IMG/VR virus record: IMGVR_UViG_3300027747_004722 | Coordinates: 1-64,000 of that record | DNA length: 64,000 nucleotides | Source: a virus | Reading direction: 5' to 3' (one strand) | Part shown: positions 1,443-11,839 of the stretch, piece after piece | How positions within the stretch are numbered: the first letter of the stretch is position 1 | Layout of the letters: every line of letters starts with the position of its first letter | Made by a program: the position numbers and the translations under genes | The notes under the pieces: generated by a model | Told to the model about the DNA's origin: nothing | Seen by the model: the letters and a program-made list of their open reading frames with translations, nothing else | Database searches by the model: none

Positions 1443-4256
1443 TCAACTGAAATTCTGGGAGGCCGCGCCATACCAATAAGTCCCGTCAGACACGAACGTC
1501 AAGATATCGATCTTGCCCGCGCCTGTCGTGATCGTGGGTGCCGTTCCGCCAGCCCATTTGACGCTGGTGAATGTCGCCGTGAACGAACCGTTTTGCGTCA
1601 AGAACAAGGTGAGCGACGCACCAGCCGACGCGCTGGGCATGGCGAATGTGCAACTGGCAGACAGCGTGACGGTTTGAACTGAACCACTGGAGAGCGACAG
1701 CGTGAGAGCAGACCCGCTGTTGCCGACGCTCACTGCTTTCTCGACAATAACCGGCAATCGCGCAATGTTTAACGTGCCGCTGCTAATGTTCGACGCGTTG
1801 GTCGTATCAGTTGTGGCGCTGGTCGCCAGACCGCTGACCGCACCCGCTGATATTGCAATGGCCGTCGTGCCTGCGGAAGTCACCCTGCCGTCCGACCCGA
1901 CAGTGAACGTGGCGACAGACGAGGCCGAGCCGTAGGAGGCGGCAGTAACGCCCGACGCGGCAATCGACGGATTCGGGTACGTCCCGGCGAGCGAGCCGCC
2001 AGCCGAGCCGGTCGGGGTCCGCGAGTCCGAGAGCCGCGAATCATTGCCCTGACAAAATGTGTTTGCAGTTGTACCGAACGCGCCGGTTGTAAGCACACCA
2101 GAAGTGGTCGTAATGACTGGGAGATTTGCGGTACTCCCAATAGCGCCGGCATTGGTAATGTTGCCGTGCGTGTGCGACGATGCCGCTCCAGCAGTTGTTT
2201 GAGTTGTGTTGTCCGAAAATGTTATGCCAGCATTAGAATCTACTATTTTTAGCGAATTAACATAGGTTTTGTTTGGCGAGTTAGCCGTGATGCCGGAGCC
2301 GATAATGTGGGCGTTAGATTGATTGTTGGTGTTGTTGTTGTGGCCGCCAAGGACTGAAGAGTAGTCGCCGCTCGCGGTGTTGAGCCTGCCGCCGCCGACG
2401 GTGCTGCGGTTGCCGCTGGCGGTATTAACTTTGCCGCCGCCTACGGTGCTGATGTATGCACTTGCGGTGTTGCCCACGCCGCCGCCGACAAAACTCCCGT
2501 ACCCGCTTGCGGTGTTGTTGAAGCCGCCGCCGATAGTGCTGTAGTCGCCGCTCGCGGTGTTGACCCTGCCTCCGGCGACGGTGGCACAGCCGTAGTAGCC
2601 GCTAGCGGTGTTGCCGCGGCCGCCGCCTACGGTGGAGTCGCCGTAGCCTGCGCCCACGCCGACGGTGGCGGTGTTGTACCTTCCGCCGCCTACGGTGCCG
2701 TAGTTGCCACTGACGGTGTTGTTTCGGCCGCCGCCGACGGTGCTGCGGTCGCCGCTGGCGGTGTTCTGCTCGCCGCCGACGACGGTGCAACTTATGCCGC
2801 TGGCGGTGTTTTCAAAGCCGCCGCCGATGATAGACGTGTGATTACTGACAGTGTTGCCATAGCCTCCGCTGATAACACTGCTTCCACAACCATCGGCCAC
2901 AGTGTTGTTAAAACCACCTCCGATAAACGCACCAACACCGTTTGCACTGTTATGCGAACCACCGCCGACGGTGCTGTAGGTGTTGCTGGCGCTGTTGCTT
3001 CTGCCGCCGGATACGGTGCTGTAGTTGCCGCCGGCGGTGTTGCTTAAGCCGCCGCCGATGATGGCAGCAGAGCCGCTGGCTCCGTTAGTAAAACCACCGC
3101 CGACAAATGCACCAAACCCGCTTGCGGTGTTGCCTTGGCCGCCAGCGACAGTACTGCCAAACAGCCCGCTTGCCGTATTATGCTGGCCGCCGCCAACCGT
3201 ACCAAAGTCCGTATTAGCGGTGTTCTGCTCGCCTCCGCTAATGGTGCTGTAGTTGTTGCTGGCGGTGTTTTGTTTGCCGCCGCTAATGGTGCTGTAGTTG
3301 TTGCTGGCGTTGTTGCCAATACCGCCGCCGACGGTGCTGCGGTCGCCGCTGGCGGTGTTGTCTCGCCCGCCGCTGACGGTGCTGAAGTTGCCGTTGGCGG
3401 TGTTGAGCCTGCCGCCGCTGACGGTGCTGATGTAGCCGCTGGCGGTGTTGCTATAGCCGCCGCCGACGGTGCTGATGTAATTGCTGGCTGTGTTGTTTCT
3501 ACCGCCGCCGATGACGCTGCGTTCGCCGCTGGCGGTGTTGTTGAAGCCGCCGCCAACAGTGCTGCGGTTGCCGCTTGCCGTGTTGTTTCTGCCGCCGCCT
3601 ACGGTGCTGTAGTAGGCGCTGGCGGTGTTGCTCTGTCCGCCGCCGATGGTGCTGCGGGGGCCGCTGGCGGTGTTGAATCTGCCGCCGCCGACAAAACTAA
3701 AATCACCGCTGGCGGTGGCTTGGTAGCCGCCGCTGACGGTGCTGACGCCGCCGCTGGCGGTGTTGAATCTGCCGCCGCCGACAAAACTAAAATCACCGCT
3801 GGCGGTGGCTTGGTAGCCGCCGCTGACGGTGCTGTTGTAGCCGGCGCTGTTAAAAATGCCGCCGCCGATGGTGCCGTAGTCGTTTTGAGCGTGGTTGTTC
3901 CAGCCACCGCTGACGGTGCTTCGGGCGCCGCTGGCGGTGTTGAGCACGCCGCCGCTGACGGTGCTGACATAGGCGCTGGCGGTGTTGAGCACGCCTCCGC
4001 CGACGGTGCTGGCGTAGCCGCTAGCGTTGTTACGATCGCCGCTGACGGTGCTGTAAGTTCCGCTGGCGGTGTTTTCTCTGCCGCCGCCGACGGTGCTGAG
4101 GTCGCCGCTGGCGGTGTTGTTGCCGTTGACAGGTTGGATGCTGTTTGTGCCGGAACCGGTTGTGTACGGGCTAGATCCGCCACCACCGCCGGTGACAGAA
4201 GAGTCCAGTGTCGCGTTCTTGAGCGTCTTGCCGCCAAAATTGATTTCGTTTGCCAT
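1443..4256 (-). CDS. Tail fibre/adhesin with ~40 x 15-aa beta-solenoid repeats
   Basis: Repeat unit NTASGxxSTVxGGxx; C-terminal fibre-tip-like domain (VKWAGGTAPTIT...IDILTFVSDGTYWYG). Confidence 0.85.
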   Translation of the reverse strand: MANEINFGGKTLKNATLDSSVTGGGGGSSPYTTGSGTNSIQPVNGNNTASGDLSTVGGGRENTASGTYSTVSGDRNNASGYASTVGGGVLNTASAYVSTVSGGVLNTASGARSTVSGGWNNHAQNDYGTIGGGIFNSAGYNSTVSGGYQATASGDFSFVGGGRFNTASGGVSTVSGGYQATASGDFSFVGGGRFNTASGPRSTIGGGQSNTASAYYSTVGGGRNNTASGNRSTVGGGFNNTASGERSVIGGGRNNTASNYISTVGGGYSNTASGYISTVSGGRLNTANGNFSTVSGGRDNTASGDRSTVGGGIGNNASNNYSTISGGKQNTASNNYSTISGGEQNTANTDFGTVGGGQHNTASGLFGSTVAGGQGNTASGFGAFVGGGFTNGASGSAAIIGGGLSNTAGGNYSTVSGGRSNSASNTYSTVGGGSHNSANGVGAFIGGGFNNTVADGCGSSVISGGYGNTVSNHTSIIGGGFENTASGISCTVVGGEQNTASGDRSTVGGGRNNTVSGNYGTVGGGRYNTATVGVGAGYGDSTVGGGRGNTASGYYGCATVAGGRVNTASGDYSTIGGGFNNTASGYGSFVGGGVGNTASAYISTVGGGKVNTASGNRSTVGGGRLNTASGDYSSVLGGHNNNTNNQSNAHIIGSGITANSPNKTYVNSLKIVDSNAGITFSDNTTQTTAGAASSHTHGNITNAGAIGSTANLPVITTTSGVLTTGAFGTTANTFCQGNDSRLSDSRTPTGSAGGSLAGTYPNPSIAASGVTAASYGSASSVATFTVGSDGRVTSAGTTAIAISAGAVSGLATSATTDTTNASNISSGTLNIARLPVIVEKAVSVGNSGSALTLSLSSGSVQTVTLSASCTFAMPSASAGASLTLFLTQNGSFTATFTSVKWAGGTAPTITTGAGKIDILTFVSDGTYWYGAASQNFS
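2330..4120 (-). repeat. Degenerate 45-bp coding tandem repeat in tail fibre
   Basis: Recurring gccgccgccgacggtgctg...ccgctggcggtgtt; exact 84-bp duplication at 3661-3744 / 3751-3834. Confidence 0.9.
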
Positions 4257-5565: not shown

Positions 5566-7173
5566 TCAGCTGTTCTCCTCGAGTGGCGGACGCTCGTCGG
5601 GCTGGTCGGGATCCTCGTACCCCGATTCGGACGAGAAGCCCTTGATCTTGCCCTTGCCCACTATGGTCTTGACCTGGTTGTCCATGTCGGCCGCGCGTTC
5701 GGTCTTCTTGAAAGAGTATTCCTTCCAGATTTCGTTGTACCTGCTCTCGCTGATCTGCCTGATCTGGAGGGTCTTCTTGTCGAACTGGGCGTGGCAGGTG
5801 AAGCGGCTCCTGCCGTGGCGGTGCTTGATGACGAATATCCTGGCTATGCCTGCCTCCTTCTCGGCCTGCATCTGGTTTATGCTCCAGCATCCGTCCAGGG
5901 GCCTGATCTGGCCGTAGGAGTCCGCGAGGTTCGTGTCGTCGATGACGCCGTCGCCGAGGGCGGAGTCCTTCTTCTGGGCTTCCCTCGCGTCCTTGTTGGG
6001 CTGCATCGCCGTGAATATGCAGATGCCCTCCTCGGTGGCGAGACCCCTGAGGTCCCTCACGATCCTGTAGCGCGACTCCCATGTGGGCATGCCGGGCAGG
6101 TCCTTCATCTCGCCGATGTAGTCGATGACCAGCAGGTCGGGGACGAAGCCCACCATCTGGAGCTGCTGCATGTAGGCCCGCAGGGAGGCGACGCTCATGG
6201 AGCCGGCGGGGAACTGCTTTATCACCAGCATCCGCTTGTCCTCCTGCTCCTTGTTGAACTCGTCGAACGCGGTTTTGACCTTGTCCTTCATCTCCTGGAG
6301 CTGGTTGATGTCGACGTCGGCGAGCTGGGCGTCGAACCTCTCCGCGATCGCGTCCTCACCCATCTCCAGCGAGATATACAAGACCTTCTTCCCGAGCTGG
6401 ACGACGTTCTTTAGGGCGGCCCCGACGAGCGCGAGGCTCTTGCCGCTGCCGCTTAGGCCTATCCACGAGTATATCTCGCCCCTGTGGCACCCCCCGCCGA
6501 GCAGGGCGTCGTCGATCATCTCGAACCCGCTCGTGAATATCTCCCTCGACTCCTCCTCCTTCGCCATCCTGGCGTACCGCTCCTCGAAGGTCTCGAAGTA
6601 GTTCAGTCCCTCCTCGAAGTTGCGTTCGACGATCAGGGCCTTCTGCAGCTCCTCGCGGATGCCGTTCCAGGTCTCCTCGCTCTCGGGGGCCCTCTTGACC
6701 ATGGCTATCGACTTGTCGAACGCCAGCTTGAGGCTCATCAGCTTCGCGAAGTTCACGATCTTGTCGAGCAGGGACTCCCTCGTCTCCAGTCCCGGAACGA
6801 ACTTCTTGTAGATTATCTCCGTCTCCGCCAGGTACTGGAGTCGCACCCCCTCGTCCCTGTTCGCGGTCTTCTGCTTGACCTCCTGAACCACCAGTATCTT
6901 CGGCGGGACGGACTTGTAGGCGTCGACGTAATCGAAGAGGATCCCGCAGAGAGCCTGGTGCCGCTCGTCCGAGAAATACGACGGACTCATCAGGTCGCGG
7001 CACTGGTTCACGAACCAGCGGTCGTTCAGGAGGAGGCCGAGTATCAGCCTCTGGAAGTCCTCGTCCCAAAGGTACCGCTCGTCCTTCCTCGCGTCGGGGT
7101 TGGTCAGCCCCTCGAGCTCCGCGGCCTCGGCCGCGGTGAGTCCCGCGTTTTCTTCCTGCGTGCCGTCGTTCAA
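5566..7173 (-). CDS. Replicative DnaB/gp41-like helicase
   Basis: Walker A GLSGSGKS, YISLEM, LVIDY, TAMQ, KHRHG; probable TTG start at 7173 overlapping the guaC stop. Confidence 0.9.
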   Translation of the reverse strand: MNDGTQEENAGLTAAEAAELEGLTNPDARKDERYLWDEDFQRLILGLLLNDRWFVNQCRDLMSPSYFSDERHQALCGILFDYVDAYKSVPPKILVVQEVKQKTANRDEGVRLQYLAETEIIYKKFVPGLETRESLLDKIVNFAKLMSLKLAFDKSIAMVKRAPESEETWNGIREELQKALIVERNFEEGLNYFETFEERYARMAKEEESREIFTSGFEMIDDALLGGGCHRGEIYSWIGLSGSGKSLALVGAALKNVVQLGKKVLYISLEMGEDAIAERFDAQLADVDINQLQEMKDKVKTAFDEFNKEQEDKRMLVIKQFPAGSMSVASLRAYMQQLQMVGFVPDLLVIDYIGEMKDLPGMPTWESRYRIVRDLRGLATEEGICIFTAMQPNKDAREAQKKDSALGDGVIDDTNLADSYGQIRPLDGCWSINQMQAEKEAGIARIFVIKHRHGRSRFTCHAQFDKKTLQIRQISESRYNEIWKEYSFKKTERAADMDNQVKTIVGKGKIKGFSSESGYEDPDQPDERPPLEENS

Positions 7174-8213
7174 TTGGCTCCCCGTTCGAAAACAGTGTTG
7201 TGGGTCCTGTTCACCCTCACGAACTTGCAGCACCTGCTCAGGTCCTTGAGGTTCTCCGTGCCGACATATGTGCACGTGCTCCGAAGGCCCCCGAGTATCT
7301 CCTGCACAGTGTGCTCCACCGGGCCCCTGTACGGCACCTTCACGCTCCTGCCCTCGGAAGCCCTGTAGGGCGCCACTCCGCCGTTGAACCTGTCCATCGC
7401 CTCGCGGCTGCTCATTCCGTAGAAACTCATGGCCACCCTGCTCCCCTCCGCGTCGAGCTCCCACTCGGACTCGCACTCGTCGTGCCCGGCCAGCATGCCG
7501 CCGAGCATGACGAAGTCGGCGCCCGCGGCGAACGCCTTGGCGACGCATCCCGGCGTAGTACAGCCGCCGTCGGCCACGATGTGTCCCTTCAGCCCGTGGG
7601 CGGCGTCAGCGCACTCTATCGTGGCCGACAGCTGAGGATATCCCACGCCGGCCACGACTCGGGTGGTACACGCGGAGCCGGGACCTATGCCTATCTTAAC
7701 TATGTCCACGCCCCCGGAGAGCAGGAGTTCCTGTACCATCTCGGGGGTGCAGACGTTCCCCGCCATGATCGCCGACCCCGGGCACATCTCCCTCAGGACC
7801 CGGCACCTCTCGACGAAGAAGCGAGTGTAGCCGTTCGCGACGTCGAGGCACAGGAACTTGGGAGGGCCGCCGAAGAGGGAACAGAAGGAGCGGAGCCTTT
7901 CGAAGTCTTCGTCCTTTATGCCCAGCGTGTAGAACGCCGGGGTTCTGGAGAAGAATTCGACCAGTCCGCCGAGTTCGTAGTGCTTGTGAATGCAGGCCAT
8001 CATGCCATGCCCGTACAGGGCCTCCGCCATGGCGAAGGTCCCGACGGTGTTCATGTTGGCGGCAAGTATTGGGACGCCCTCCCACTCCAAATGGGAATTG
8101 AGGAAGCGATACCTCCTCACGAGGTTCACGTTGCTTCGGCTGGGCGATTCGGAGCGCTTCGGGCAGATGAGAACATCGGCGTAATCGAGCTTGACCTCGG
8201 ACTCTATCCTCAC
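7170..8213 (-). CDS. guaC: GMP reductase
   Basis: KLDYADVLICPKRS, LDVANGY, KIGIGPGSACTTR, GYPQLSA, ADGG, FYGMSS, YRASEG. Confidence 0.95.
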   Translation of the reverse strand: MRIESEVKLDYADVLICPKRSESPSRSNVNLVRRYRFLNSHLEWEGVPILAANMNTVGTFAMAEALYGHGMMACIHKHYELGGLVEFFSRTPAFYTLGIKDEDFERLRSFCSLFGGPPKFLCLDVANGYTRFFVERCRVLREMCPGSAIMAGNVCTPEMVQELLLSGGVDIVKIGIGPGSACTTRVVAGVGYPQLSATIECADAAHGLKGHIVADGGCTTPGCVAKAFAAGADFVMLGGMLAGHDECESEWELDAEGSRVAMSFYGMSSREAMDRFNGGVAPYRASEGRSVKVPYRGPVEHTVQEILGGLRSTCTYVGTENLKDLSRCCKFVRVNRTHNTVFERGAN

Positions 8214-8283: not shown

Positions 8284-8562
8284 GTGCCAAGGAAGAAGAA
8301 ACTGGTCGACAAGGCCGCCAAGAAGAAGTCGGACGGCAGGTGCAAGTTCTGCGGGGAGGACAACTACTGCGTCCTCGACGTCCACAGGATCATGCCGGGC
8401 GAGAAGGGGGGCGAGTACGTGCCGCTCAACGTGGTCACCTGCTGTGCCAACTGCCACCGCAAGGTCCACGAGGGAAAGATCGGCGTCGACAGGATGTACT
8501 ACTCGACCATGGGCTGGGTTCTCCACTGGTTCGACGAGTCCGGGACGGAGCACTGGGATTGA
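8284..8562 (+). CDS. HNH endonuclease
   Basis: CKFC...DVHRI...NVVTCCANCHRKVH. Confidence 0.85.
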   Translation: MPRKKKLVDKAAKKKSDGRCKFCGEDNYCVLDVHRIMPGEKGGEYVPLNVVTCCANCHRKVHEGKIGVDRMYYSTMGWVLHWFDESGTEHWD

Positions 8563-8563
8563 G

Positions 8564-9124
8564 TCAGTCCTTGCCGCCGAGGTAGTCGTACTCGGAAAGC
8601 GAGACCATTCCCGTCCTGATGCTCTTCTCCCTCGTGATCTTCTTCCCGAGCGACTTCTGCGCGTTCCAGGTGATCGCCTTGCAATAGGTGATGAACTTGG
8701 CGTCCATGCGGAGGGCGGCGCGCCTGTCCGGCCTCTGCTTGTTGGGAACCAGCGACCTCACCAACTTCTCGAGCATCTTCTCCTGGTGCGGGCCGAACTT
8801 CTGCTTGTTGGCCCCGTGCCGGGTCTTGTTCTTCCACAGCCCCGCGAGCTGTTTCACGACGGACTTGATCACCTCGTCCTTGGCGCTCTTCTTGCAGAGC
8901 TCGAGGCAGTCCTCTATGTAGCACTGGCGCTTGTAGTACGACGCCGCGCGCAGCAGGGCTATCCGCATGTCCTGGGCTATGTCCTCCTGGCTGTCGGTGT
9001 GGTTGTTCCTCGTGTTCTTCTTGATTAGCTGCCACGCCTGGTACTCGCACAGCTCGCCGAACTTGTCGTTGAGGATGGCGTACTCCTCCTCCGTGACCGG
9101 GAACGAATCGTGTATGTGTTTCAT
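8564..9124 (-). CDS. Sigma-70 region-2-like protein with internal insertion
   Basis: EDIAQDMRIALLRAA resembles region 2.2; KFITYCKAITWN resembles region 2.3; about 70 aa lie between them. Confidence 0.45.
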   Translation of the reverse strand: MKHIHDSFPVTEEEYAILNDKFGELCEYQAWQLIKKNTRNNHTDSQEDIAQDMRIALLRAASYYKRQCYIEDCLELCKKSAKDEVIKSVVKQLAGLWKNKTRHGANKQKFGPHQEKMLEKLVRSLVPNKQRPDRRAALRMDAKFITYCKAITWNAQKSLGKKITREKSIRTGMVSLSEYDYLGGKD

Positions 9125-10413
9125 TCTTCAACTCCTGTTCTAAGTGGTTTCATGTCGTCCAGGCGGGCGCCGTGGACGCACGAGGTCCTCAGCCCGAGGC
9201 CGGGGAACATCGGATCCTCCTCCTCGAGAACCCTCGTGCCGACCTCGAAAACTTCGCCGACCTTGTTCTTGGCGCATACAACGCAGTATCCGTCGTGAAC
9301 GTGGAAGCACGACCTCGCGAGCCCCGACAAGGAGCCGTGGAGGCGTACGAGCTTCCTGAGACATATCATGCTGGCAGGGGACTGCACGGAGAAGTTGCGT
9401 ATCTTGTAGAGCTCTCGCTCCTCGAACCGACGCCGCCTCCCGAAGAAGTCCACGGCCATGTTGTCGCCATCGGGCGACTGGGAGGTTACCCAGTCAAAGG
9501 CGACAGGAAAGGCATCAACCAGCGTATCTATGATTCTGGAAGCAATTTCTTCCTTGATCCCCGTGCGGGACGCCAGCGACCGCGGGCCCTGGCCGAAAAC
9601 CACGGGCAGGAACACGTCCTTGCAGGTCTTCCTGTTGCCCTCCGTCGCCTCGGAGCGGATGACCCGCGACCATATGGCCCTGTACGGGTCGTCCCCCGAC
9701 TCCAATATCGACCCCAGGGCGGGGTCGCCGGAGAGCCACTGGAGGACGTTCACCTCCATGTTCCTGTAGTCGAAGTACACGAAAACCTCGTCGTACCCCG
9801 GGGGGCGCAGGTTGGCCTTCTGCTCCGCACCCATGGAATGCGGGTTGTAGTGGCCATCCGTCGGGACGACGGCCTTGAGGCGACCGTTGGCCTGGCCCTC
9901 CACCACGTAGGACGGGTACACGCATCGGCGCTTCGAGTTGTCCACCAGGCAGCAGGTCTCCATGTCGGGGAGGACGGAGGACACCAGCGGGAGGTAGACC
10001 TCCGTGTAGAAGGGCTTGAACGCGCCCCAGCCCGGGTGCCCGACGAGCCTCTTGAGGAGCCTCACGGCCTCGGGGAACGAAGAGGGAACCTCGCAATCCA
10101 CGGACAGGTAGGAGGAGATCACGGAAAGGTCGTAAAGGAAACCGCCCATCTCCATGGCCATCTCGGTGCGGGACTTCAGGAACGAGAAGACATCCTTCGC
10201 CGACCAGGAGATCAGGAACCTGTCGTTGTCCAGAAAGTGCTGTATGGACGCCGCCAGGTACGAGAGGGAAAGGTTGTCGGAGCAGGGGACCACCGCCCTC
10301 CCGCCTCCGAAATGGAAACGGAGCTCGGAGTCGGAGGCCCTCCCGGGATCGAACATGTAGAAATATATGTCATGTCCCCTGAGGCGGGACATCACGTCAG
10401 CCACTTCTGCCAT
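9121..10413 (-). CDS. Atypical compact family A DNA polymerase
   Basis: Motif A DYRNME, motif B RKTCKDVFLPVVFG, GRRRRF, NFSVQSPAS, motif C HVHDG; start uncertain (10413 or 10425). Confidence 0.85.
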   Translation of the reverse strand: MAEVADVMSRLRGHDIYFYMFDPGRASDSELRFHFGGGRAVVPCSDNLSLSYLAASIQHFLDNDRFLISWSAKDVFSFLKSRTEMAMEMGGFLYDLSVISSYLSVDCEVPSSFPEAVRLLKRLVGHPGWGAFKPFYTEVYLPLVSSVLPDMETCCLVDNSKRRCVYPSYVVEGQANGRLKAVVPTDGHYNPHSMGAEQKANLRPPGYDEVFVYFDYRNMEVNVLQWLSGDPALGSILESGDDPYRAIWSRVIRSEATEGNRKTCKDVFLPVVFGQGPRSLASRTGIKEEIASRIIDTLVDAFPVAFDWVTSQSPDGDNMAVDFFGRRRRFEERELYKIRNFSVQSPASMICLRKLVRLHGSLSGLARSCFHVHDGYCVVCAKNKVGEVFEVGTRVLEEEDPMFPGLGLRTSCVHGARLDDMKPLRTGVEE

Positions 10414-10609
10414 CGCCACGATCATAACCGGCGCGTGGCGATATTGAAATGCGTCCGGCCTTGGTGTTCTTGTGGAGCGAGTAGAGGAGACTCCTGTTGA
10501 TCTCTCCAAGTTCCTTGCCGTAGAAGAGACTCACGGCCTCCCGATACTCCATGCCCTTCCTCTCCGCGAGCCTTCTGATGTGCCTTCTTGTTTTTTTCTT
10601 GCTGCTCAT
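10397..10609 (-). CDS. Small basic protein (70 aa)
   Basis: MSSKKKTRRHIRRLAERKG...; overlaps the polymerase start. Confidence 0.5.
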   Translation of the reverse strand: MSSKKKTRRHIRRLAERKGMEYREAVSLFYGKELGEINRSLLYSLHKNTKAGRISISPRAGYDRGDGRSG

Positions 10610-10649
10610 TAGAAAATACTTGTGTAAGATTTGACAAACCACCCCTGTT

Positions 10650-11050
10650 TCACCCTAGAGAAGGGGCCTTCCCTCTGGGTACCCACTTAAAGAAACATAA
10701 TACCTATTGGCTCATGTCTCCCCAGTCTGGTGTACTTTGAGGTACGCCGACATTCCGATTGCCCGAACCCCTCCACCTGTATTATGGCGATCTTTTGATC
10801 TGGTACCCTTTTTCGGACCGTGACCCAGGCCCACGACGCATCGACTAGCGTCGGGTTACACGGCAAAGCACGGATCTCTCCGCGCCAAAAGACCTTTCTA
10901 CAGGCGACTCAGCCTCCTCCGTCATTGGCTATGCGAGTTTCAACGCAAAGGCTTAGGGACCGGGGAAGTATGATCCCCGTGGCTCCGCGATCTCTCGAAC
11001 GCGGACTCGAAAATGTTCTCCATTCGAATCTAGTTCAGGTTGAAGTTTTT
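10650..11050 (-). ncRNA. Candidate structured non-coding RNA (strand and ends approximate)
   Basis: No credible ORF; many stems; GNRA loops (GAGA, GCAA) and G-U pairs read correctly on the minus strand. Confidence 0.45.
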
Positions 11051-11131
11051 TGCTTTTCGTTATAGGTTATTGCAGGTTTTCCGCAGACGCAAAACATAAC
11101 TAGATTCATCCGGAGGGGCAATACCGAAATC

Positions 11132-11839
11132 ATGAGAGAGCTCGAGCCCATCATCGAATACAGCATGGACGCCAACGAGGCCAAGGCCTACAAGATAGCG
11201 CTCATGTGGCAGGACGAGTGCCGAAGGGAGATACCGAATGAGCCTTACGCGAGACTGAAGGCGGGATCGGACCCGAGGAGGTGCCTGCTCTTCAAGCACT
11301 GCTTCAAGCTGGCGAGGGAGATGAAAGGGATACTGGAGGACTCGGAGATATCCCTGTACATCAGGGCCCAGATACAGATGCTGAAGGCCATCAACGACGG
11401 TCTCGTGCACGCCCTGATAGAACCCCACTGCCTCACGGGCGACAAGGCCTGGAGAAGGTGGAAGCTCTGGAAGCACCGATACGAGAAGATGATATCCCGC
11501 CCGCGTTCGCCTTCGGACGCGTCCATACGCCCGAGCGACAGGAAGGCGAGGTCGGAGATATCCGCCTCGCTGGCATTCCTCGAAGAGGCCGGATGCACGG
11601 ACGCCTCCGCCTTCCGCGACAGGGCCGAGGACGTACGCAGGTGGGTCAAGAGCGGCAGGCTGTCAGGATTCTACGCGACGCTCTCGCCTTGGGTGCGGAA
11701 ATTCGTCGGAGACCCGTCCGAAATGGGCTTCGACCACGGCTACTACAGGGCCGCCGCCACACCGGAGATAGAGAGGTTCTTCAGGGAGTCCTTCCCCCAC
11801 GAGTTCGACCCCGGGAGGGAACCGTGCCTAGAAGCCTAG
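11132..11839 (+). CDS. Hypothetical protein
   Basis: 235 aa, backbone-like codon usage, GGAGG upstream. Confidence 0.75.
   Translation: MRELEPIIEYSMDANEAKAYKIALMWQDECRREIPNEPYARLKAGSDPRRCLLFKHCFKLAREMKGILEDSEISLYIRAQIQMLKAINDGLVHALIEPHCLTGDKAWRRWKLWKHRYEKMISRPRSPSDASIRPSDRKARSEISASLAFLEEAGCTDASAFRDRAEDVRRWVKSGRLSGFYATLSPWVRKFVGDPSEMGFDHGYYRAAATPEIERFFRESFPHEFDPGREPCLEA

Follow-up and report, generated by a model that had tools for sequence, protein, structure and literature searches.

A conserved structured RNA precedes the genes for a compact family A polymerase and a sigma-region-2-like protein in uncultured huge phages

Introduction

What is a large folded RNA doing upstream of the gene for a shortened DNA polymerase, and does it belong to the enzyme or to the transcript? 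The question is raised by a 64,000-nucleotide stretch of viral DNA (the window), which is the first 64 kb of the 99-kb IMG/VR record IMGVR_UViG_3300027747_004722. Four elements follow one another on its minus strand: a non-coding region, a small basic open reading frame (ORF), a family A polymerase (PolA), and a sigma-region-2-like ORF. A preliminary description of the window had picked out this series and had speculated that it forms a ribonucleoprotein system, in which the RNA and the basic protein supply a primer, template, or processivity scaffold to the polymerase, or else an origin-priming module. All four elements proved to be present and conserved. We put at about even the chance that the cassette is a conserved replication/late-transcription operon with a structured 5′ leader and not a dedicated RNA-protein polymerase machine.

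A conserved RNA structure upstream of the polymerase

The basic ORF is separated from a divergently transcribed 235-aa gene by 522 nt of ORF-poor intergenic DNA (10610 to 11131), in which no conserved ORF was found. The conserved non-coding region, here termed structured RNA type 1, occupies ~450 nt of this stretch on the minus strand (10656 to 11104). Searches with nhmmer matched it in 13 loci at E values of 1e-29 to 1e-107; the PolA proteins there are 40 to 80% identical. From 11 distinct sequences, RNAalifold produced a consensus fold of 46 pairs, 26 of them with compensatory changes. In controls with the 3′ partners slid by 1 to 3 columns, 36.8 to 54.1% of cells paired compared to 90.9% in the actual fold, double-change pairs numbered 8 to 15 compared to 26, and the covariation score was 0.07 to 0.18 compared to 0.459. 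None of 500 shuffles reached the observed values. The fold energy of the single sequence is weak taken alone (z = −1.98). In the consensus there are 52 G-U pairs versus 14 A-C pairs, and this excess identifies the folded strand as the polymerase (minus) strand.

The predicted fold contains a multi-helix domain (10767 to 10976) closed by long-range helices, in which 10955-10960 pairs with 10767-10772, 10899-10907 with 10773-10781, and 10885-10893 with 10790-10798. Within this domain is a near-invariant core (10818 to 10863) of nested hairpins, CCGUG...CACGG around GACGC-loop-GCGUC, with the invariant motifs UAACC and GGGUCA; the loop of the conserved hairpin measures 8 to 10 nt. Both core stems covary among 17 sequences. 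The outer stem changes from CCGUG/CACGG to CCAUG/CAUGG, the inner stem occurs in four different sequences, and the swaps include G-C to A-U, with CG, GC, AU, and UA all represented. Peripheral hairpins are exchanged wholesale between G+C-rich and A+T-rich genomes, with GNRA or UNCG loops in relatives. At the 3′ end, a G/C hairpin with a weakly U-rich tail (10657 to 10684) is conserved in the alignment of relatives; it lies ~50 nt upstream of the basic ORF in the window and 10 to 50 nt upstream in AT-rich relatives. The UAAC of the invariant loop also occurs in the loop of the T4 gp43 operator, a 4-nt coincidence with a different polymerase family to which we give no weight.

No Rfam 15 family matched, either at the gathering score over the whole window or at E values up to 5 over positions 10300 to 11300. 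The element is single-copy in the window. Its exact core pattern was found in 12 stretches among 2.9 million IMG/VR viral contigs and in 12 among 241 million JGI metagenome records, and all 24 instances sit between the 235-aa gene and the basic ORF/PolA in identical orientation. A covariance model located a diverged homolog, the only match in the 527-kb relative G003, 1.7 kb upstream of PolA on the same strand. Both of its core stems are again compensatory; an opposite-strand gene lies between this RNA and PolA, and the basic ORF is missing. Over 64 loci, covariance model R1 gave no further members except a weak one in L054. As judged from sequence comparison, this is a previously undescribed structured RNA family. 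The preliminary description had proposed a search for co-conserved structure upstream of homologous polymerases, and a conserved, covarying RNA is what that search recovered.

The place upstream of PolA is also occupied in other subclades. Of 52 distinct loci, 51 have 530 nt or more between PolA and the 235-aa gene, and in the 15 gaps inspected this DNA is mostly ORF-free. In a second subclade, whose PolA is ~31% identical, the gap folds into a different structure of ~380 nt with 79 pairs. Here 94.9% of cells pair versus 38 to 52%, 21 pairs carry double, compensatory changes versus 1 to 4 in slid controls, and G-U pairs outnumber A-C pairs by 29 to 4. A third subclade has conserved sequence and a predicted structure at the same place, this fold being one without controls. 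The nhmmer profiles link none of the three RNA types, and a rare motif, ACUGAG..GG..GCU, is common to types 2 and 3 only. Since other subclades have RNAs of their own at this place, a structured RNA before the operon characterizes the clade as a whole, to which one branch has added the basic ORF. In two loci of the second RNA subclade, the position that the basic ORF has in the window, between the RNA and PolA, is taken by a small hydrophobic ORF (..KAxQxxGxITTA..KxEYTVIS..; L055:3836-3946 and L060:3826-3960).

Transcription signals around the RNA

In AT-rich relatives, sigma70-like promoters (10 of 12 matches) lie upstream of the RNA on the same strand. No terminator-like sites were found between the RNA and the ORF on the RNA strand of the window, L007, L008, or L012, and the 3′ G/C hairpin failed the criteria of the terminator scan in all genomes scanned. 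The distance from the core to the first ORF is roughly constant, mostly 170 to 270 nt. At the 5′ edge of the RNA region of L012 (3349-3385), two overlapping, divergent sigma70-like promoters occur (10 and 11 of 12 matches), one directed toward the RNA and operon and the other toward the 235-aa gene.

A compact family A polymerase with half a thumb

The polymerase gene (10425 to 9121, minus strand) encodes a Pol I-type protein of 434 aa, identical to database protein P0001. It matches Pfam DNA_pol_A (PF00476) with an E value of 2.9e-19 and 69.7 bits against a cut-off of 34.3, over model positions 101 to 362 of 381 only. The AlphaFold model (pLDDT, 90.6) contains a Klenow-like palm and fingers fold (Foldseek E value, 1e-17) and superimposes on KlenTaq 295-832 over 392 residues (Z, 32.1; rmsd, 2.8). 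In an hhalign comparison with E. coli Klenow, PolA residues 110 to 407 correspond to Klenow 601 to 909. The motif-1 loop (PSSFPEAVRLL compared to PSTSEEVLEEL), thumb helix I, palm, and fingers are kept, and ~80 thumb residues are missing (Klenow ~520 to 600; helices H, H1, and H2, the ascending half). This enzyme had been called thumb-less in the preliminary description. That term goes too far, because the descending half remains, and we describe it as a half-thumb polymerase. The exonuclease-like domain is shortened to ~108 aa, with nearly half of it missing, and ~55 residues run from it to the palm compared to ~138 in Taq. The same truncated architecture (408 to 456 aa) is found throughout the clade.

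PolA keeps the polymerase motifs: a TGR-like NGR, motif A (DYxxxE; DYRNMEV), motif B (RxxxK), and motif C (HD). Among 24 sequences of the family, D221, E226, K271, H379, and D380 are invariant and R267 is nearly so. Motif B is atypical, with Leu occupying position B3 and Klenow Tyr766 replaced by Phe, and motif C reads HDG rather than HDE in nearly all members, with Gly for Glu883. The steric-gate Glu together with the Pol I-like motifs indicates DNA-templated synthesis from dNTPs. As for proofreading, no conserved DxE of an active 3′-5′ exonuclease was found, only K79 and D101 being invariant in the N-terminal ~110 residues, and the exonuclease-like domain is probably inactive.

The sigma-region-2-like and basic proteins

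The gene after PolA (9124 to 8564, minus strand) encodes a 186-aa protein with sigma region 2 only, a ~65-aa three-helix insert, and a disordered C-terminal tail. Its structural model has a pLDDT of 84.8, falling below 50 at residues 168 to 186. In an exhaustive structural comparison (VIA-align), about 25 of the top 50 matches are sigma-2 domains (Z, 6 to 8.2) that span residues ~8 to 170. They include ShbA (Z, 8.2), SigB (7.5), the SigE N-domain (7.5), and sigma70 (7.2), as well as sigma28, AlgU, RpoS, sigmaK, sigma32, and several extracytoplasmic function (ECF) sigmas. Residues ~62 to 130 match only three-helix bundles and hence constitute the insert. A profile search of 1.84 billion representatives yielded 93 clusters, and the weakest of these, P0209 and P0212, pass the Pfam Sigma70_r2 cut-off. 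A language-model (Atlas) search gave the same sigma lead, and the motifs EDIAQDMRIALLRA and KFITYCKAITWN resemble regions 2.1-2.2 and 2.3-2.4. The 186-aa protein itself is below Pfam detection and has no PHROG match; Foldseek with its model gave nothing below an E value of 0.3, and a PDB sequence profile gave chance matches only. It was the fold and the profile bridge to Sigma70_r2 that bore out the earlier label "sigma-region-2-like." Region 4 is absent from the protein, which stops ~20 residues past region 2.4 with a tail that is disordered in the model. The last ~19 residues end in a conserved acidic-hydrophobic motif, SLSE[YF]DYL (33 sequences).

Directly upstream of PolA, the basic ORF (10609 to 10397, minus strand) encodes a small, basic, helical protein of 70 aa. 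Iterated hidden Markov model searches found it at this place only in the 13 closest loci, the same loci that have type-1 RNA. Its core, RRxIRRLAxRKGIxYxEAIxKFY...NKNLxYSLxK, persists in genomes from 29% to 60% G+C, and the ORF is therefore clearly coding. No relatives were found in Pfam, PHROG, or PDB. Since the same truncated PolA is found clade-wide and the basic protein only in these 13 loci, PolA does not need the basic protein. In one relative, P0112 (507 aa, from a 633-kb contig), the basic protein is fused in frame to the PolA N terminus. P0112 also departs from the usual HDG, its motif C reading HDE as in only a few other members.

Gene order, source, and replicase content

To follow the gene order, we fetched 80 related viral loci. 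The order around the PolA homologs is conserved, an outcome for which the preliminary description had suggested checking. The sigma-like gene follows PolA in 79 of the 80, the remaining locus stopping at a contig edge, and the divergent 235-aa gene (11132 to 11839, plus strand), which bounds the RNA region, stands upstream of the operon in 67. No match to the 235-aa gene was found in Pfam, PHROG, or Atlas. The overlaps noted earlier are real: in the window, the basic ORF and the PolA start share 29 nt, and the PolA stop and the sigma-like start share ATGA. The PolA and sigma-like genes are tightly packed in the relatives too, often with the ATGA overlap. In every comparison the sigma-like protein has changed less than PolA, with identities (sigma-like/PolA) of 95/80%, 88/56%, 73/41%, 59/31%, and 55/29%. 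In one metagenomic relative, ~1.2 kb is inserted between the basic ORF and PolA (L105:4845-6126).

CheckV rates the 99-kb source record as 20% complete, implying a phage of several hundred kilobases. Relatives of PolA occur on contigs of up to 633 kb and in IMG/VR records of 340 to 572 kb, three of which are rated complete. Among GenBank phages, a protein search found a single relative, the unannotated 595-kb uncultured phage LR756511.1, and no nucleotide similarity to GenBank or deposited phages was detected. The cassette belongs to a clade of uncultured huge phages (related contigs, 340 to 630 kb).

Replicase content was examined in five large relatives (G001 to G005), three of them rated complete. 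None of the five has PolB polymerase or exonuclease domains, each has one compact PolA, and four have PolIII-alpha/DnaE, apparently split over two ORFs. The preliminary description had considered PolA possibly accessory on the premise that T4-like phages replicate with a family B polymerase. That premise is wrong for this clade. The accessory role is supported for another reason: with no PolB, a single compact PolA per genome, and DnaE in four of the five, PolA is probably accessory. The PolIII-alpha domain (PF07733) of G001, G003, G004, and G005 has its positions 2 to 98 in an ORF of ~470 aa and its positions 100 to 259 in an ORF of ~900 to 980 aa, 5 to 16 kb apart on the same strand (for example, G003:214221-214919 and 230217-230531). 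One piece in G001 is itself interrupted, possibly by an intein. This division of PF07733 suggests a split DnaE replicase in huge phages. Each of the five genomes also encodes 1 to 3 further proteins past the Sigma70_r2 cut-off, far from the PolA locus; these phages thus carry several sigma factors.

Other features of the window were noted in passing. A 92-aa HNH endonuclease ORF (8284 to 8562, plus strand; Pfam HNH E value, 1e-5) runs convergently toward the end of the sigma-like gene; only ~10 of the 80 related loci have it, and so it looks like a mobile homing-endonuclease insertion. Downstream of the cassette are a GMP reductase/IMPDH-family gene (E value, 9e-65) and a DnaB-like helicase gene (7170 to 8213 and 5566 to 7100, both minus strand), the GMP reductase being syntenic in closer relatives. 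A 937-aa ORF (1443 to 4256, minus strand) has a weak match to beta-roll (ice-binding-like) repeats, and the neighboring 283-aa ORF has an Ogg/HhH glycosylase-like domain. A tRNA/tmRNA search found none. In G003, GC skew is strongly positive over the first ~55 kb and negative over the remaining ~470 kb, an asymmetry that suggests unidirectional replication or a strong transcription-strand bias.

Discussion

Our preferred reading, an operon with a structured leader, can be set out as follows. Transcription would start in the divergent promoter region beside the 235-aa gene, and a folded 5′ leader RNA of ~450 nt would be made first. The transcript would then run on, past no recognizable terminator, into the genes for the basic protein (in this subclade only), PolA, and the 186-aa protein. 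PolA would keep its chemistry, including the steric-gate Glu, and so would use dNTPs. With proofreading and the ascending thumb half lost, it is most likely a short-patch enzyme of low processivity, an accessory that would fill gaps, replace primers, or take part in repair alongside a DnaE-type replicase. The 186-aa protein would bind the host RNA polymerase core through region 2 and bring it to phage promoters, while its acidic-hydrophobic tail would engage a partner, for instance a sliding clamp. Expression of the operon would be set in cis by the leader RNA, which in this subclade may work by binding the basic protein, in autoregulation or antitermination.

Several observations weigh against this reading. 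A scan of the window found no sigma70-like promoter and no terminator, and we infer the ends of the RNA, the transcript boundaries, and even co-transcription with the ORFs. The detached copy in G003 fits a stand-alone RNA better than a leader. For the polymerase, the HDG of motif C, which lacks the third carboxylate, may alter catalysis; in Klenow mutants, loss of Glu883 lowers kcat. DnaE was not detected in G002, where PolA could therefore be the main polymerase. For the 186-aa protein, structural Z scores of 6 to 8 are moderate for helical bundles and not decisive alone. A comparison of the family profile with T4 gp55 by hhalign gave a probability of 0.1 and no sequence similarity, no DnaN domains were found in the relatives, and a search for gp45 there had no match, its positive control being silent too.

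A stand-alone small or medium non-coding RNA would act in trans, for example on RNA polymerase, the replication machinery, or mRNAs, its place in the divergent intergenic region being incidental. A compact, closed multi-helix domain with near-invariant loops is what one expects of an RNA that functions as a folded molecule, the homolog in G003 has an opposite-strand gene on either side and is not directly before PolA, and the conserved 3′ G/C hairpin has a weak U tail. However, that hairpin misses the terminator criteria in all scanned genomes, and the RNA always has the orientation of the operon at a roughly constant spacing to the first ORF. We consider such an RNA unlikely. The origin-priming variant of the earlier speculation supposes that the RNA as a structured transcript, or the same strand as single-stranded DNA, provides a primer or R-loop extended by the phage Pol I-type enzyme, on the model of ColE1 RNA II with Pol I or of T4 origin R-loops. 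A large intergenic region between divergent genes adjoins PolA here, a DnaB-like helicase is 3.5 kb away, and a Pol I-type accessory enzyme alongside a DnaE replicase is the ColE1 arrangement. Yet internal loops this close to invariant suggest that the RNA is a binding site with a fold of its own rather than a hybrid-forming primer. Nor did GC skew lend this variant any support: in G003 the only turns of the cumulative skew are at ~55 kb and the record ends, none falling at PolA (287 kb), and the window shows no clear turning point at 11 kb. The test is a weak one, since skew in such phages may reflect transcription. We see only a slim prospect of an origin here.

The ribonucleoprotein reading has the RNA and the basic protein, the sigma-like protein, or both bind the half-thumb PolA as a surrogate thumb, processivity scaffold, primer, or template. 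Several features invite it. Every one of the 24 core instances of the RNA sits at the PolA locus, and other subclades have structured RNAs there. The missing thumb half creates a need for another DNA-holding element. The PolA and sigma-like genes are closely packed, one relative has fused the basic protein to PolA, and a truncated family A polymerase that gains priming with a small partner, CCPol-MP (PMC10201439), is a precedent. But conservation of an upstream RNA is equally expected of a cis-regulatory 5′ leader, most loci with the same truncated PolA lack the basic protein, and RNA sequence types differ between subclades while PolA remains colinear. In addition, the G003 RNA is cut off from the operon by an opposite-strand gene, the 186-aa protein has the fold and motifs of sigma-2 and not those of a polymerase subunit, and the steric-gate Glu with Pol I-like motifs indicates ordinary DNA-templated dNTP synthesis. 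We strongly doubt this reading, and we regard as highly improbable its specific form, in which the RNA, joined in one subclade by the Arg-rich protein, physically associates with PolA and replaces the thumb helices or acts as a built-in primer or template. A related proposal makes the 186-aa protein itself a polymerase subunit, a DNA-binding or clamp-tethering partner in place of the lost thumb half, and not a transcription factor. Its gene follows PolA in 79 of 80 loci with overlapping start and stop in many, the protein is conserved more strongly than PolA, and its conserved C-terminal peptide is similar to clamp-binding tails of the kind also seen on polymerases (T4 gp43). Proximity to PolA is not diagnostic, because T4 gene 55 likewise sits among replication genes. 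The fold and the sequence bridge point to sigma region 2, and in three genomes (L022, L054, and L051) the gene lies 0.9 to 3.7 kb from PolA. This role for the protein therefore seems very doubtful to us.

The locus matters in several respects. Type 1 is a new class of structured RNA, to judge from the comparisons above, with a closed domain of ~210 nt in a region of ~450 nt, tied to one operon in huge phages that have diverged deeply. Large structured RNAs without an assigned function are uncommon, and such RNAs have often proved to have new biochemistry. Among natural Klenow-fold enzymes whose active site is intact, PolA is one of the smallest. Its half-thumb and HDG motif make it a natural experiment on the thumb and the third carboxylate, and it is possibly a compact enzyme for biotechnology. 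A gp55-like mini sigma suggests that T4-type coupling of late transcription to replication may reach huge phages that use DnaE and not PolB. If the ribonucleoprotein reading were true, the cassette would encode a naturally occurring ribonucleoprotein DNA polymerase of family A, along with the sigma-like targeting factor co-expressed with it.

Comparison with known systems

A structured RNA directly upstream of a polymerase gene is also found in T4, as the translational operator of gene 43 (PMC3014915), and lambda nutL-N likewise places an RNA site before the gene for a small Arg-rich protein, the first of an operon. The T4 gene 43 operator and the lambda/P22 nut sites are single hairpins of 16 to 40 nt, whereas the domain here is at least 210 nt within the conserved ~450 nt. 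The lambda/P22 boxB loop is a GNRA-like pentaloop, in contrast to the conserved loop of 8 to 10 nt in type 1. At its N terminus, the basic protein (KKKTRRHIRRLAERK) resembles the arginine-rich RNA-binding motif of P22 N (gp24; AKTRRHERRRKLAIER), although the match is short and only partly conserved, its KT and H residues varying in the basic-protein family. Unlike lambda/P22 N, the basic protein appears to be a folded three-helix unit. We take the Arg-rich resemblance as a lead for possible RNA binding and nothing more. With ColE1, the cassette shares a folded RNA, several hundred nucleotides long, that is functionally linked to an enzyme of Pol I type while PolIII carries out bulk replication; it differs in having no GC-skew sign of an origin at the locus, and neither an RNase H site nor a counterpart of antisense RNA I was noticed, no search having been aimed at them.

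PolA has the same overall fold as Klenow, KlenTaq, and Bst, and its 3′-5′ exonuclease-like domain is vestigial, as in Taq. The large fragment of bacterial Pol I has ~540 to 605 aa compared to 434 aa here, where half of the thumb and part of the exonuclease domain are deleted. Nineteen clusters of family A polymerases, including ones with "broken" thumbs and the exonuclease-truncated CCPols, are distinguished in PMC10201439, and none is described with this half-thumb build in the portion of that paper on which we draw. CCPol-MP of staphylococcal cassette chromosome (SCC) elements is a parallel in layout, with a truncated family A polymerase beside a small partner protein and a helicase, and the complex gains priming activity. 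CCPol differs in lacking most of the exonuclease domain and not the thumb; its partner MP is a beta-barrel and not a basic helical protein, and no RNA is involved (PMC10201439).

The 186-aa protein finds its best counterpart in T4 gp55 (185 aa), which has sigma region 2 only, a flexible linker, and a clamp-binding tail (PMC2988020). Both proteins are without region 4, and both have a flexible C-terminal segment with a short acidic-hydrophobic end. The ~65-aa three-helix insert between regions 2.2 and 2.3 is found here and not in gp55, and the T4 late system includes gp33 and the gp45 clamp, whereas no gp45, gp33, or DnaN gene was detected in the relatives. With no detectable homology to gp55 and no clamp gene found, we argue function by analogy and do not claim membership in the gp55 type. 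The tails nevertheless invite comparison, that of gp55 reading SLDFLYEAND, the end of gp43 SLDFLFG, and the end here SLSE[YF]DYL, and the 186-aa protein most likely works like T4 gp55.

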